Source: Anaerolineae bacterium
Lineage (GTDB): Bacteria > Chloroflexota > Anaerolineae > B4-G1 > SLSP01
DNA: 64,000 nucleotides
Direction of reading: 5' to 3'
Assembly: GCA_035347995.1 (NCBI GenBank)
Contig: DAOPQD010000005.1
Span: 6,433 to 70,432, forward strand
Shown: piece by piece, positions 40,967 to 46,078 of the stretch
Layout of the letters: every line of letters begins with the position of its first letter
How positions within the stretch are numbered: position 1 is the stretch's first letter
Translations under genes and position numbers: made by a program
The notes under the pieces: generated by a model
Database searches by the model: none
What the model was told of the DNA's origin: nothing
The model's input: the letters and a program-made list of their open reading frames with translations, nothing else

Positions 40967-41383
40967 CTAAAGATGATAATCGCCCGCAGCTTCGGGCTGA
41001 TAGAGAATCTCCAGCACCCGCAGGTGACTGATGCCCGCGGGCACTTCCCATTCAAAGGTATCGCCCACGCGATATCCCAGCATGGCCATCCCGATAGGCG
41101 CGAGCACCGAAACCTTGTCCTGTGCAGGATCGGCATCCTCCGGGAAAACCAGCGTGACCGTCATCTCCTCCTCGAATTCCAAATCATACAAACGAGCTTT
41201 CGAGTTCATGGTGATGACATCCGGCGGGACCTCGGTGGGCGCGACGATCTGTGCGCGAGCCAGCTCCCCTTCCAGGCGGCGTAAGGCGTCGCGGTTGGCA
41301 TAACCGGTGCGGTGCAATTCGTCAATCAGTTCAGATAGACGGTGCTTGTCGAATTCGGTGATGTAAATAGCACGTTCGTTCAT
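40967..41383 (-). CDS. rnk: GreA/GreB-family protein, Rnk-like (regulator of nucleoside diphosphate kinase)
   Basis: 138 aa. C-terminal GreA-type domain VSVLAPIGMAMLGYRVGDTFEWEVPAG; short N-terminal helical part as in Rnk. Confidence 0.75.
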   Translation of the reverse strand: MNERAIYITEFDKHRLSELIDELHRTGYANRDALRRLEGELARAQIVAPTEVPPDVITMNSKARLYDLEFEEEMTVTLVFPEDADPAQDKVSVLAPIGMAMLGYRVGDTFEWEVPAGISHLRVLEILYQPEAAGDYHL

Positions 41384-41402
41384 CGAAAAACTCCCAATTC
41401 AA

Positions 41403-41894
41403 TCAATGTTGACGCAGAAACTGACCCAGGTCAGGGTTCTGCTGAATGGCAAAATTTCCATGCCCGAAGGCGTGCAGCAATCTCCGCGATTGAGGGCTGT
41501 GAAATTGGGGAGCAGAGCCGCGCGTGCAAATATACGCCTTCCAAGTCGTTTGTTGTCGAAGCGGTTGAGCATGATTAGCGTTGAAATGCGGCGCAAGCGA
41601 TTGCAGCGTGTTGATGACTTGCTCGATGGCATGCGTGATATCGCTTCCCTTCAGCTCTACAATGCAAATGGTAGTGGACGCGCTTCCCTCAGGCGTGTAG
41701 AAAACCAATAGATCGCTCAAGGCGCCGCAGATGTGCAGTTCGGCACGCAAGGCACAGGGACGATTTGTCTGATCGTCAATGGCAAACCATTTCCAAGTCT
41801 CACCCTGGCGCGGGGTAACGCGCACGACAATACCTCTTTCTCTGTAAGCATTTCCTGGGTGCCGACAGCGTTCGCGCATGGTTGAACAAGGCAT
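41403..41894 (-). CDS. hypothetical 163-aa protein with a PD-(D/E)xK-like motif (predicted restriction-endonuclease fold)
   Basis: ..LSDLLVFY-x13-ICIVELKGSDITHAIEQV... 2 nt downstream of the ATPase stop. AT-richer than its flanks. The ORF call is firmer than the nuclease assignment, which rests on motif spacing only. Confidence 0.55.
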   Translation of the reverse strand: MPCSTMRERCRHPGNAYRERGIVVRVTPRQGETWKWFAIDDQTNRPCALRAELHICGALSDLLVFYTPEGSASTTICIVELKGSDITHAIEQVINTLQSLAPHFNANHAQPLRQQTTWKAYICTRGSAPQFHSPQSRRLLHAFGHGNFAIQQNPDLGQFLRQH

Positions 41895-41896
41895 CG

Positions 41897-43315
41897 TTAC
41901 TCAACCGCTCCCACAACATCAAGGACATCAAAATAAATTTGAGAAATACGGTCAGAAACCCGCCCAAAAGTGCCCCAGTCAATATCGCCCTGTTCATCCA
42001 GAATGCTGTGCGCGGTCCCCTTCTCAAAAAGGTAAACCGCAACTTGTGCCTGTGAGAGTAAGGCCGCCTCACGTTTCAGGAAGAAATGCTCAGCGGCTTC
42101 AGCAGGTCTTGGATGGCGTGCACCGGCTATCAGGTTGGCCAGGTGATCCACCACATACGGGCTATGGGTAGTGGCCATCACATTGATCCCGGCATTGACC
42201 ATCATGCCGAGGAATTCCACTAACCGTACCTGGGCTTCCGGATGAAGATTCATTTCGGGTTCATCAATCACCACTAAATCGCCTTCAGTGGCCAAATACC
42301 GCAGATAAAATACCAGCGGCGCCAATTCTTTGACCGCTGAAGAGGCTGCATTGATACCCAATGCCCCGCCAGGAATCGAGAAATGGATGCGTCGTTCGAT
42401 ACTTGGCTCCGGAGTGGAAAAGTCAACCTTTCCCCCCAATAAGTCATGTTCCAAAATTTCGGCAAGCCGCAGGTATTCGTTGATCTCAGGCTCTTGGCGC
42501 GCCTGCTGTTCCCGTTGAACGCGCGTGCCAGTCAAAAGAGCGGTCGTCATCCACCCCTGGTAAATAGTAATAGGAAAATTCACCATGGTGCGTTTTAGAT
42601 TCTCTGTCAAATCCGCATAAGATTGCATAGTCGAGCCATACCCAGGCAAGCCCCGCAATAATTGTCCAACTTGTTCTAACTGGGGGAAAAAACCACTACG
42701 TTCTGTGGGAAACGGCCAAACGAAGGCATATAAACAACGGTGTAACGCGGCAAAGATATTTCGGGCCACAAATTCACGGATGATGGTAGGATGTAGATTC
42801 GAGGCTTCGCCTTCGGTGTAAAAGTACAACGTTGTATTGCCAGTTTCTTTTAGCGCGCGCAAAACACCGCCGACCTGGTCTTTGACTTTCAGCTCAGCTA
42901 ATTTGTCCCATTTTTCTGAAGTATAATCTACTGTGACTTGTAGCTGTGTTTGTTTGAAATTGGTAACTGGCGCGCCAATCACGGTTGGGAGCCAATCTTG
43001 AGCAAGTCTGGCAATGCCGTCAAAGTACATCTCCCCATAGCGTTCCGCAAACGTCAATAAATCAACCTGAGAATTTCCTTTTCTTGATAATTCTTCAATA
43101 ATAGTTTCTATAACAGGATAATTCTCTGAAGTTTTTTGTTCTTTGAACGCATTTAAGTATTCTAACCAGCCATAACCGAATAGCCCCAGAAGGTTAGCAA
43201 TGGCATTTGCGGTCCAGGTTTTTCCCGCATTGCTAGGGCCAACAAAAATCGTCAGTGGGCGCAGTGCTATCTCGGCGTTTTCAACCGGGCCTAAATTTCT
43301 AATACTTATTTTCAT
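41897..43315 (-). CDS. ABC-type (AAA_15/AAA_21-like) ATPase with long helical insert
   Basis: 472 aa. Walker A GPSNAGKT, Walker B/D-loop LVVIDEPEMNLHP, H-loop ATTHSP. AT-rich 5' end. Confidence 0.85.
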   Translation of the reverse strand: MKISIRNLGPVENAEIALRPLTIFVGPSNAGKTWTANAIANLLGLFGYGWLEYLNAFKEQKTSENYPVIETIIEELSRKGNSQVDLLTFAERYGEMYFDGIARLAQDWLPTVIGAPVTNFKQTQLQVTVDYTSEKWDKLAELKVKDQVGGVLRALKETGNTTLYFYTEGEASNLHPTIIREFVARNIFAALHRCLYAFVWPFPTERSGFFPQLEQVGQLLRGLPGYGSTMQSYADLTENLKRTMVNFPITIYQGWMTTALLTGTRVQREQQARQEPEINEYLRLAEILEHDLLGGKVDFSTPEPSIERRIHFSIPGGALGINAASSAVKELAPLVFYLRYLATEGDLVVIDEPEMNLHPEAQVRLVEFLGMMVNAGINVMATTHSPYVVDHLANLIAGARHPRPAEAAEHFFLKREAALLSQAQVAVYLFEKGTAHSILDEQGDIDWGTFGRVSDRISQIYFDVLDVVGAVE

Positions 43316-43329
43316 GATTTTTACTTTCT

Positions 43330-45972
43330 CTACTTCCGCGACTTGCGCCCCTTAGGTTCCCCCGTCACGAGCCGCTGCCACTCGTACAATTTGGTCAGCG
43401 CCTCGAGTGGGGTGAGGCTGTTCACATCCAGCGTGCGCAGCGCCTCGATCACGGGGTGCTCTTTGGCGATGAGCAGCGGCTGGAACGGTTCCGGTTCCGC
43501 CGCGCCGGGCCGAAATTCGCCGCTCTCCAGCTGCACCAGCAACGCCTCGGCGCGATGGACGACCGGCGCGGGCACGCCCGCCAACCGCGCGACGTGAATG
43601 CCATAAGAGCGATCCGCCCCTCCCGGCGCCACCCGGTGCAGAAAAACCACGTCCTTCCCCTCTTCGACCACCGCCAGGTTGAAGTTACGGACGTGCGGGA
43701 GATGCTCTTCCATCTCGATGAGCTCGTGGTAGTGCGTGGCGAACAGGGTGCGCGCCCGGCGCTCCGGGTGATTGTGAAGATATTCTACCACAGCCCACGC
43801 AATTGCCATCCCGTCATAGGTGCTCGTGCCGCGCCCGATCTCGTCCAGAACCAGCAGGCTTTGCGGTGTGGCGTGATTGAGAATCGCGGCCGTTTCCACC
43901 ATCTCCACCATGAATGTGGATTGTCCCGCCGCCAGCTCGTCGGAGGCACCGATGCGCGTGAAGATGCGATCCGCTATGCCGATCTGCGCCGCGTCCGCCG
44001 GCACAAAACTGCCGATTTGCGCCATCAACACGATGAGTGCGCTTTGACGAAGGAACACTGATTTCCCGGCCATGTTAGGGCCGGTGATGATGTGGATCCG
44101 ACTGTCCTCATCCATCCGCAAGTCGTTGGGGACAAAGGGCGTCTTGAGCGTGCGTTCCACCACGGGATGCCGCCCGGCGCGGATATCGAGCACTGGCGCG
44201 GACGTGAGGGTGGGACGGACGTAGTGATAACGCGCGGCGACTTCCGCCAGCGCCGCCGCCACATCGAGCCGGGCCAGCGCCGCGGCGAGTGCCAGCAGCT
44301 CCGCCGCGTGAGCGGCCACCTGCGCACAGAGCTCGCGGAACAGCCGCGCCTCCAGCTCGTTGATGCGCTCCTCGGCATTGAGCACCAGGCTTTCGTATTC
44401 TTTGAGCTCCGGCGTGATGTAGCGCTCCGCGTTGACCAACGTCTGTTTGCGGATGTAATCCGCCGGCACGGCCCCGGCATTGGCGTGCGTGACCTCGATG
44501 TAGTAGCCAAAGACCTTATTGTAGCCCACCTTCAGGGTCTTGATGCCCGTGCGCGCGCGTTCCTTGCCCTCCAGGGCAGCGATCCACTCACGGGCGTCCC
44601 GGCTCGCCAGGATGATGCCATCGAGTTCGGCGGAAAAGCCGGGGCGGATGAGGCCGCCGCCATTCGCCTGCGGCGGGGGGTCGTCTACCAGCGCCGCCGC
44701 GATGAGCGCGGCCACCTCGGGCAAGGGCGCCAGGCCTTCGGTCAGCGCCGCAAAGCCCGGGGGCGCAGTCCGCGCCTCTGCCACGAGGGCGCACAGCTCA
44801 GGCACCGTCTCCAGCGCGGCGCGGATGCCGACGAGGTCACGAGGAGGCGCTTTCCCCGCCGTGACGCGATTGACCATCCGCTCCAGGTCGGGGACTGGTT
44901 TGAGCAAACGGCGCACGGAGGCCCGCAACAAGCCCTCTTCCACCAGCCCCTGCACCTGATCCAGGCGCGTCTCCAGGGCGGTGATGTCGAGCAACGGACG
45001 TTGCAGCCGGTGCAGCAGCAGCCGGCCGCCCATCGCCGTCAACGTCATATCGAGCACCCCCAGCAACGAACCGTGCTTCTCGCCGCGCAAGGTCTCCGTG
45101 AGTTCCAGATTGCGCCACGTCGCCGGATCCATCGCCATGAAGTGCCCGGTCGAATACGTCATCAGCCCCACGATCTGCGGCAGCATCCCCTGCTGCGTCT
45201 CCTGCAGATACGCCAGGATCGCGCCGGCAGCCCGCACCGCCAGCGGCTTGCCCTCGCAGCCGAAGCCCTCCAGCGTGCGCACCCCGAAATGTTCCAGGAG
45301 CGTTTGCCGCGCGGTCGTCTCCTCGAAGCGGTAAGCGGCCCACGGCGTGAAATGCGCCGGCAACGACCCGGCGAGCGCCTCTTCGGGGGATGTTTCTGGC
45401 TGATCGGAAGCGCGCTCCTTCCACGAGCCGACCTTGGGGAAAAGCACCTCACGCGGCTGAAGGCGCGCCAATTCCTGCCGCGCCGCCGCGAGGATGTCGC
45501 CATCCTCGCTGAGCTGGGTCGCGCCGAACTCGCCGGTGGAAATCTCCGCGTAGGCGATGCCCGCGCGTTCGCCCTCGATCACCACAGCGGCGAGGTAATT
45601 CGGACGTTTCTCGTCGAGCAGTGCCGGCTCGATGAGCGTGCCGGGCGTGACAACGCGCTCGATGCGGCGCTCCATCGGCCCACGACCGTCAGGCTCGCCT
45701 ACCTGCTCGGCAAGCGCCACACGATAGCCTTTCTCGATGAGGCGGGCGACGTAGTTTTCTACCGCGTGATAGGGCACCCCCGCCATCGGAATGCGCACGC
45801 CCTTCGCCACCGGGCGCGAGGTGAGGACAATATCCAGCTCCCCGGCCACCAGTTCGGCGTCGGCGTCGAAGGTCTCATAGAAATCGCCCAGCCGGAAGAA
45901 CAGGATAGTGTCCGGATAGCGGGCTTTCAATTCCAAATATTGCTTGCGGATGGGGGTCGTGTCTTCACTCAT
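43330..45972 (-). CDS. mutS: DNA mismatch repair protein MutS
   Basis: Starts MSEDTTPIRKQYLELKARYPD. Also GPNMAGKS, STFMVEM, DEIGRGTSTYDG. The track ORF extends 35 codons further upstream without homology. Confidence 0.95.
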   Translation of the reverse strand: MSEDTTPIRKQYLELKARYPDTILFFRLGDFYETFDADAELVAGELDIVLTSRPVAKGVRIPMAGVPYHAVENYVARLIEKGYRVALAEQVGEPDGRGPMERRIERVVTPGTLIEPALLDEKRPNYLAAVVIEGERAGIAYAEISTGEFGATQLSEDGDILAAARQELARLQPREVLFPKVGSWKERASDQPETSPEEALAGSLPAHFTPWAAYRFEETTARQTLLEHFGVRTLEGFGCEGKPLAVRAAGAILAYLQETQQGMLPQIVGLMTYSTGHFMAMDPATWRNLELTETLRGEKHGSLLGVLDMTLTAMGGRLLLHRLQRPLLDITALETRLDQVQGLVEEGLLRASVRRLLKPVPDLERMVNRVTAGKAPPRDLVGIRAALETVPELCALVAEARTAPPGFAALTEGLAPLPEVAALIAAALVDDPPPQANGGGLIRPGFSAELDGIILASRDAREWIAALEGKERARTGIKTLKVGYNKVFGYYIEVTHANAGAVPADYIRKQTLVNAERYITPELKEYESLVLNAEERINELEARLFRELCAQVAAHAAELLALAAALARLDVAAALAEVAARYHYVRPTLTSAPVLDIRAGRHPVVERTLKTPFVPNDLRMDEDSRIHIITGPNMAGKSVFLRQSALIVLMAQIGSFVPADAAQIGIADRIFTRIGASDELAAGQSTFMVEMVETAAILNHATPQSLLVLDEIGRGTSTYDGMAIAWAVVEYLHNHPERRARTLFATHYHELIEMEEHLPHVRNFNLAVVEEGKDVVFLHRVAPGGADRSYGIHVARLAGVPAPVVHRAEALLVQLESGEFRPGAAEPEPFQPLLIAKEHPVIEALRTLDVNSLTPLEALTKLYEWQRLVTGEPKGRKSRK

Positions 45973-45978
45973 ACGCGC

Positions 45979-46007
45979 ATTATACCCGTGGGATAAAAAT
46001 CGGGCAA
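45979..46007 (-). promoter_or_regulatory. mutS promoter TTGCCC-17-TATAAT positioned for a leaderless transcript
   Basis: Perfect -10 at 45984-45979 (minus strand). Only 6 nt (gcgcgt) separate it from the ATG at 45972, and there is no SD. Confidence 0.45.
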
Positions 46008-46078
46008 GAATCACCGGAGGGCAAAATCGCTCTGGGGGGGCGCAGTCGCCCGTGACGTCTCGACGCGGGATAACCAAC

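Follow-up and report, generated by a model that had tools for sequence, protein, structure and literature searches.

The closest described relative of the gene pair considered here is WonAB, which is encoded on the WASA-1 prophage of V. cholerae and consists of an OLD-type ABC ATPase, WonA, and a 'variant PD-(D/E)xK' protein, WonB (Adams et al. 2025; PMC12137116). Defense by WonAB requires both genes, the WonA residues K34, R182, E300, and H333, and WonB K71; the substitutions K34A and R182A in WonA and K71A in WonB each abolish it, and it proceeds as lysis-independent abortive infection after phage replication starts (PMC12137116). That report also cites an 'OLD-ABC ATPase + novel REase' (restriction endonuclease) operon predicted by Krishnan et al. 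2020, to which WonAB is related. A further system, PD-T4-4, was recovered by functional selection, defends E. coli, and is found on an element resembling integrative and conjugative elements (Vassallo et al. 2022; PMC9519451); it has been placed among systems that combine a PD-(D/E)xK nuclease with a P-loop NTPase, and forms higher-order complexes (10.1101/2025.07.10.664194). Here, we analyzed two genes located between mutS and rnk in a 64,000-nucleotide (nt) stretch of an Anaerolineae bacterium contig (DAOPQD010000005.1, positions 6,433 to 70,432; hereafter the window), and find that they very probably constitute a divergent anti-phage module that consists of two genes, belongs to the WonAB family, and was acquired horizontally.

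The two genes are directly adjacent and co-directional, with the ATPase gene preceding that of the small putative nuclease, an arrangement that is a feature of WonAB membership:

41897..43315 (-), WonA-like ABC ATPase gene, 472 amino acids (aa), from the list of open reading frames (ORFs) together with Pfam, PADLOC, and hhalign.
41895..41896 (-), 2-nt spacer from the ATPase stop to the small-gene start (TAA-CG-ATG), which suggests translational coupling.
41403..41894 (-), WonB-like small gene, 163 aa, predicted REase fold (PD-(D/E)xK variant).

The larger protein, of 472 aa, is an ABC ATPase. Pfam assigned it to AAA_15 (expect value, E, 3e-20) and AAA_21 (8e-17), and its PADLOC matches were led by PD-T4-4_A (5.4e-49) and PDC-M47A (1.2e-46, end to end), followed by AriA, NsnB, Old, GajA, and PtuA. 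Hundreds of full-length relatives exist at ~40% identity, and an alignment of 47 ATPase sequences (A2) forms the basis for the statements on invariance made below. A preliminary description of this locus, made from the sequence alone, had recognized a 472-aa protein of the ABC/SMC-like type, and every motif that it quoted was present; judged from the residues, the nucleotide-binding motifs are all intact:

43217..43240 (-), Walker A, GPSNAGKT, residues 26-33, with G26, G31, and K32 invariant.
42689..42709 (-), PTERSGF, residues 203-209, with E205 and R206 invariant and R206 at the Q-loop position.
42326..42343 (-), ABC-signature-like SSAVKE, residues 325-330, with S325 and E330 invariant.
42239..42277 (-), Walker B and D-loop, LVVIDEPEMNLHP, residues 347-359, with I350-E354 and N356-P359 invariant.
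42158..42175 (-), H-loop, ATTHSP, residues 381-386, with H384 and S385 invariant.

The signature-region stretch SSAVKELAPLVFYL spans residues 325-338. In the AlphaFold2 (AF2) model (predicted local distance difference test score, pLDDT, 85.7), the protein has an ABC-type head, a large helical insert, and a C-terminal extension beyond the H-loop (residues ~400-472) that includes a helix at 451-471. The solved structures nearest to this model were PtuA, Rad50, AriA, and SMC heads, with low template-modeling (TM) scores of 0.3-0.38, while the best match in a sequence search of the PDB was the OLD-family nuclease 6p74 (1e-10), around Walker B and the H-loop only.

The 163-aa ORF carries LSDLLVFY...ICIVELKGSD...ITHAIEQVINTLQ, in which the preliminary description had seen a D..(D/E)xK motif of the kind found in REase-fold nucleases. 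That observation was borne out in an alignment of 109 members of the small-protein family (A1), where D61 and E80 occur in every sequence, K82 in 108, E32 in 107, and Q92 in 104; because D61, E80, K82, and Q92 are conserved across the alignment, the motif is no chance match. The block concerned, delimited by conservation in A1 and by alignment to WonB, is:

41619..41714 (-), putative catalytic core, D61 ... E80-L-K82 ... Q92.

The AF2 model of the small protein (pLDDT 91.4) places D61 just ahead of the strand formed by residues 62-67, E80 at the end of the strand 74-81 with K82 next, and Q92 in the long helix that follows. From its sequence and model, the protein is a variant PD-(D/E)xK protein of REase fold with the core D61/E80-x-K82/Q92, and the earlier reading of the pair as an ATPase with an REase-fold effector thus agrees with the Pfam assignments, the AF2 models, and the conserved core. 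Neither Pfam nor NCBIfam offered a credible family for the small protein; DAO and DUF7666 were discarded as candidates, their matches being below threshold. No Toprim or HNH domain was matched by Pfam or PADLOC, and a PDB sequence search with A1 returned no match and hence no close solved structure. When used alone in a word-index protein search, the small protein retrieved only its own cluster, and A1 as the query retrieved only 15 proteins; an exhaustive HMMER search recovered 217 cluster representatives, nearly all of ~160 aa.

Both proteins were connected to WonAB by profile comparisons. In A4, which aligns seven canonical WonB proteins, the residues D40, C52, D53, E69, K71, G72, A78, and Q81 are invariant, and hhalign of A1 against A4 gave a probability of 97.8% (E 9.3e-13), pairing D61 with D53, E80 with E69, K82 with K71, and Q92 with Q81. 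For the ATPase, A2 against V. cholerae WonA gave a probability of 97.7% (E 2.4e-12); in this comparison the window residues K32, R206, E352, and H384 were equivalent to WonA K34, R182, E300, and H333, respectively, and SSAVKE was aligned with WonA SSGQQE. Moreover, a pair from Nostoc sp. 5183, which is a MacSyFinder WonAB entry in Supplementary Table 4 of PMC12137116, is 39% identical to the window pair in the small protein (E 1e-33) and 33% in the ATPase (E 1e-68), and on these sequence comparisons is a clear member of the same A1/A2 subfamily. Among the WonAB entries in the part of that table that was examined, there were none from Chloroflexota. Finally, V. cholerae WonB matched only PDC-M29B in PADLOC (1.2e-9), which is the same single model reached by the small protein of the window. 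The preliminary description had regarded the pair as an undescribed system that could not be assigned to a named one. This part of it does not hold, given the homology to WonA and WonB, the Nostoc pair in the WonAB table, and the PADLOC matches; in substance, the match to a named system is to WonAB.

The association of the two genes extends well beyond the window. A scan of one genome per species seeded with A2 and limited by pattern yielded at least 321 ATPase relatives, from which 80 loci were retrieved. A small-family ORF, intact or fragmented, lay directly downstream on the same strand in 76 of the 80 loci, and in 76 of the 77 that were assessable: three of the four loci without it are contig ends, and in the fourth (L047, 9400-9700) all that is left of the small gene is a remnant of each end, N-terminal MPFNTL and C-terminal DLGNFLRG. 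The two genes are therefore strictly co-conserved and form a fixed cassette of ATPase then nuclease. It is carried by cyanobacteria and Chloroflexota, by Thiomargarita/Beggiatoa-like sulfur bacteria of the Gammaproteobacteria, by Desulfobacterales, and by methanogenic archaea; WonAB homologues have been reported mainly from Gram-negative bacteria (PMC12137116). Members of the subfamily are commonly found among methanogens and related archaea, including Methanothrix, Methanomicrobiales, and Methanosarcinales/ANME-2c (loci L011, L012, L014, L015, L035, L041, L054, L058, L073-L075, L080, L082, L085, L089, and L090). About one in eight of the homologous loci is degraded, with a split small gene or ATPase in L024, L038, L039, L046, L084, and L089 and the remnants noted above in L047. 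Two Chloroflexota metagenome-assembled genomes (MAGs) contain two separate copies of the pair on different contigs (L039 and L061 in CAVTLG01; L068 and L076 in DATLSI01).

The genes that surround the cassette are not conserved. Specifically, the 94 immediate neighbors represented 135 Pfam families, mostly housekeeping, and included a few defense genes, namely those for type I and type IV restriction, MADS, and prokaryotic Argonaute (pAgo)-like proteins. A conserved third gene beside the pair was looked for among the homologous loci and was not found, and no MutS or Rnk homologue was present within 8 kb of the pair in the 80 loci. The position between mutS and rnk is hence lineage-specific. The closest relative outside the species (L116, 1615-3515) encodes a pair of 470 and 161 aa with a 56% identical ATPase and the same 2-nt spacer, and is inserted co-directionally between ferredoxin/FlpD and formate-dehydrogenase-like molybdopterin genes with no mobility gene nearby; its GC content is 0.46, compared with ~0.64 in the flanks. 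L116 is thus a second instance of the cassette, without an obvious promoter, inside a string of housekeeping genes. Because its neighbors are variable and L116 lies in an unrelated, AT-poorer operon, the pair appears to be a self-contained mobile two-gene cassette.

Related pairs of an ATPase and a small protein were also found on clinical plasmids of E. faecium and E. coli. The E. faecium plasmid AUS0004_p1 (L092:2995-4925) carries a pair matching PD-T4-4_A (1e-65) and PDC-M47B (2e-7), which adjoins a Txe/YoeB-family toxin-antitoxin pair and resolvase/transposase genes. The 4.8-kb Col plasmid pSCU-105-5 of E. coli (L091:1352-3350) carries a bona fide PD-T4-4 pair; small enterobacterial plasmids are a known location of PD-T4-4. 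An origin from phages was weighed and rejected, as there were only seven relatives on viral contigs and five partial matches in a phage collection.

In the window, the pair is flanked on the same strand by two housekeeping genes that are outside the module:

43330..45972 (-), mutS, upstream flank, with the five Pfam domains MutS_I-V.
43316-43329 (-), 14-nt spacer from the mutS stop to the ATPase gene.
41384-41402 (-), 19-nt spacer from the small gene to rnk.
40967..41383 (-), rnk, downstream flank, with Pfam Rnk_N and GreA_GreB.

The spacing of 14, 2, and 19 nt is exactly that given in the preliminary description, which was also accurate on composition and on the absence of signals. GC content is 0.475 in the ATPase gene (0.47 at third codon positions, GC3) and 0.535 in the small nuclease gene, versus 0.658 in mutS (GC3 0.82) and 0.614 in the whole window, and the lowest value for any 400 nt, 0.42, is at 42800-43199. 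The pair is compositionally foreign and looks to have been acquired horizontally. In a simple consensus scan, no sigma-70-like promoter or intrinsic-terminator-like site was detected on the coding strand from the mutS stop to rnk. Likewise, mobility genes were absent among the called genes within ~6 kb in every contig of the same species. The spacing and the scan together suggest that the cassette lacks its own promoter and is transcribed by read-through that enters from mutS and continues into rnk, with mutS probably the source of the transcript, and as a promoter-less read-through unit it would be expressed constitutively at a low level.

The start of mutS can be read in more than one way. 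A TTG at 46077 would give a 915-aa reading (window 45973-46077), while gene calls in related contigs mostly begin with the ATG at 45972, for a product of 880 aa, and some use a start that gives 907 aa. The strongest promoter-like hexamer pair, TTGCCC-17-TATAAT (10/12), lies at 46007-45979(-), and the 880-aa start is favored because these hexamers fall inside the longer reading.

The insertion is fixed in its lineage. The order mutS-ATPase-small gene-rnk was found in every contig with an identical small protein or an identical Rnk, and was colinear in a sister lineage (L093) with an 84% identical ATPase; an empty site, that is, an uninterrupted mutS-rnk junction, was not found among the identical-Rnk contigs and the sister lineage. 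Every contig of the species, like the sister lineage, has the two ORFs intact. Truncation of the small ORF, suggested by '140-aa' gene calls in some contigs, was dismissed as a matter of start-codon choice only, the ORF being intact at 163 aa. Relative to the sister lineage, the ratio of nonsynonymous to synonymous divergence (dN/dS) was 0.08 for the ATPase (dS 1.06) and 0.28 for the small gene (dS 0.20), which points to functional constraint and purifying selection on both.

The dS of the ATPase gene far exceeds that of mutS (0.12), and one segment of the locus is highly divergent between the lineages:

42270..43329 (-), AT-rich divergent allelic segment, comprising the 14-nt spacer and ATPase codons 1 to ~350 (Walker A lobe and helical insert).

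Across this segment the window is 62-82% identical to L093:5987-7050, with a GC content of 0.33-0.52 versus 0.49-0.58 in L093, while outside it identity is 93-100% in mutS and 90-95% in the 3′ third of the ATPase gene and the small gene. From these sequences, it looks as though the N-terminal (sensor) part of the ATPase was replaced by recombination, one breakpoint coinciding exactly with the stop codon of mutS. The 5′ two-thirds of rnk (41100-41383) form another divergent patch relative to the sister lineage (70-84% nucleotide identity, dS 0.86), and the genes on either side of it (upstream, the small gene; downstream, orf132) are ~90-95% identical between the lineages. The rnk patch is a second, separate recombination patch.

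By analogy to WonAB and PD-T4-4, the ATPase would dimerize head to head around ATP, and the dimer would serve as the infection sensor and regulator, responding to a cue that may arise after phage DNA replication begins. The small nuclease would dock on the ATPase, whose binding and hydrolysis of ATP would control it, and activation would lead to cutting of nucleic acid. In such a scheme, nuclease activity would block late phage development and arrest the infected cell, i.e., abortive infection, without wholesale DNA degradation. Expression at this locus would, given the gene spacing, probably occur by read-through from mutS.

Alternative explanations for the pair were weighed against its placement in the WonAB family. 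That it represents PD-T4-4 in the strict sense, i.e., the system of the E. coli ECOR58 genes and of the PADLOC/DefenseFinder PD-T4-4_A/B models, is unlikely. The genes of the bona fide pair of pSCU-105-5 do lie in the same order, the motif CD...DLK...QI is seen in its B protein in the family-profile alignment, PD-T4-4_A is the best PADLOC match of the window ATPase, and 10 of the 109 A1 members match PD-T4-4_B models, although weakly (some members also reach PDC-M47B). However, the small protein of the window had no match to the PD-T4-4_B models at E <= 1, and when A1 was compared by hhalign with individual plasmid proteins resembling PD-T4-4_B, the probabilities were just 3% (pSCU-105-5 PD-T4-4_B) and 45%. 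Further, the window ATPase is only 24.7% identical to the PD-T4-4_A of pSCU-105-5, and its leading model (PDLC04033, the 5.4e-49 match) is matched in two stretches, the best being residues 319-433; a second PD-T4-4_A model, PDLC04032, gave 1.6e-28, and the pSCU-105-5 pair scored 3e-123 and 1e-43 with the A and B models. The nuclease is closer to WonB/PDC-M29B, and the WonB profile comparison was decisive because a multi-sequence WonB alignment replaced the single plasmid proteins. At the other extreme, the earlier proposal of a new ATPase-nuclease system unrelated to named ones is scarcely tenable. It draws on the lack of a Pfam or NCBIfam family for the small protein, of any word-index relative beyond its own cluster, and of a close solved structure, but is refuted in substance by the profile-profile homology to both WonB and WonA, the Nostoc pair of the same subfamily among the published WonAB entries, and the matches to PD-T4-4_A, PDC-M47A, and PDC-M29B.

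Two further explanations concern what the pair does in its present location. If it were what is left of an old insertion, decaying and no longer functional, then the split or truncated genes in about one-eighth of homologous loci, as well as the rare C60S substitution that adjoins the catalytic Asp of the window nuclease, would be accounted for; yet both ORFs are intact throughout the species and its sister lineage, all family-invariant residues are present, and the dN/dS ratios of 0.08 and 0.28 were obtained at dS 1.06 and 0.20, so that this explanation is very unlikely. Domestication of the pair for MutS-linked host DNA metabolism, for example, for ATP-controlled nicking or processing in mismatch repair or anti-recombination, would fit the tight same-strand spacing between mutS and rnk without a detected promoter or terminator, the fixation of this arrangement in every same-species contig and the sister lineage, and the purifying selection on both genes. 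Nevertheless, no MutS or Rnk homologue accompanies the pair within 8 kb in 80 other genomes, L116 is in an unrelated ferredoxin/formate-dehydrogenase operon, the composition is foreign and the allele mosaic, and the proteins are homologous to validated anti-phage proteins; we therefore regard domestication as barely credible. A related proposal is that in this lineage the WonAB-like cassette has been co-opted to work with MutS, either as an ATP-gated nicking/anti-recombination module or as a defense triggered by MutS-detected lesions. In a milder version, the cassette would spread promoter-less into housekeeping operons and diversify by swapping the N-terminal sensor lobe of its ATPase. Even taken jointly, these two versions are highly improbable.

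Several observations weigh against a horizontally acquired WonAB-family defense module, which we nonetheless favor. The functional evidence comes from V. cholerae WonAB and from PD-T4-4, both outside the ~40%-identity subfamily of the window. The window pair has housekeeping genes as neighbors and lies outside any defense island, and elsewhere only about a tenth of the immediate neighbors are recognizably defense genes, a proportion that comes without a background rate. Unlike the prophage-borne WonAB, the subfamily is rare on viral contigs, where its seven relatives are weak or moderate. The small protein resembles solved REases only moderately, and at position 60 (41715-41717), beside the catalytic Asp, it has Ser where 104 of the 109 A1 members have Cys; Ser occurs in only three of the 109, and all seven aligned canonical WonB proteins have Cys at this position ('CD' motif). 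The same Ser is present in the small protein of the sister lineage. For co-transcription with mutS, the evidence consists solely of the spacing and a crude consensus scan.

With respect to its wider meaning, the pair leaves the current picture of ABC-ATPase/nuclease defense systems unchanged, and its biological interest is modest. The WonAB-related subfamily to which it belongs extends into archaea and Chloroflexota. This large subfamily escapes Pfam and NCBIfam, and probably also PADLOC v2, because the small nuclease is too divergent; PADLOC v2 would probably not call the window pair, since its small protein reaches only PDC-M29B at E 5e-5. Alignment A1 could seed a hidden Markov model that closes this annotation gap. 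Additionally, the two sister lineages share the insertion and differ sharply in the N-terminal two-thirds of the ATPase, which is the pattern expected if the sensor were exchanged under phage pressure.

Among known systems, the pair shares with PARIS (AriAB), Gabija (GajA), Septu/retron PtuAB, and OLD an OLD-type ABC ATPase sensor that is paired or fused with a nuclease effector, and these systems supplied the nearest solved structures and sequence matches for the window ATPase. In contrast, their effectors are Toprim or HNH while that of the window is predicted to be of the REase-fold type, and the likeness of their ATPases is confined in sequence to Walker B and the H-loop (E 1e-10 to 1e-5), with the low TM scores given above.

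The PADLOC candidate systems come closer in one component each. PDC-M47A spans residues 1-434 of the ATPase (model positions 1-411 of 461), whereas the small protein has no PDC-M47B match. PDC-M29B, the sole PADLOC model for the small protein, gave a weak match to about half of the model (5.3e-5) and is also matched by 48 of the 109 A1 members, but PDC-M29A matches the ATPase at only 1.5e-10, such that the best matches for the A and B components fall in different candidate systems. These cross-matches are what would be seen if the A and B components had different histories, or if the models split one continuum arbitrarily. A literature search on PDC-M29 and PDC-M47 returned no paper naming either. 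PD-T4-4 likewise pairs an ABC (AAA_15/21) ATPase with a small PD-(D/E)xK protein encoded after it, and the B proteins have CD...(D/E)LK...QI in common, although PD-T4-4_B shares the motif only and its models miss the small protein of the window.

The resemblance to WonAB involves both components. In each case a two-gene operon encodes the ATPase and then the small nuclease, the ATPase carries Walker A, an Arg in the position of the Q-loop, a signature motif, Walker B with the D-loop, and an H-loop, and the small nuclease bears the signature C-D ... E-L-K-G-x-D ... A-x-x-Q, in which K82 corresponds to the essential K71. There are also differences. The window ATPase exceeds WonA in length and in the size of its helical insert (E352 versus WonA E300), and is nearer to PD-T4-4_A/PDC-M47A (~1e-47) than to PDC-M29A, whereas for WonA the order is reversed in PADLOC. 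The window nuclease has 163 aa compared with 120-170 aa in the aligned canonical WonB proteins, a conserved extra N-terminal segment (MPFNxLLL...G-T-S-x-x-E), and S60 in place of the conserved Cys. Moreover, the window pair is chromosomal and situated in a housekeeping operon while WonAB is on a prophage, and its subfamily occurs in Chloroflexota, cyanobacteria, and methanogenic archaea. Based on these sequence relationships, the ATPase leans to PD-T4-4_A/PDC-M47A and the putative nuclease is a longer form of WonB. The window pair thus adds a new member, or at most a subfamily, to a described and validated family, and is related to PD-T4-4.

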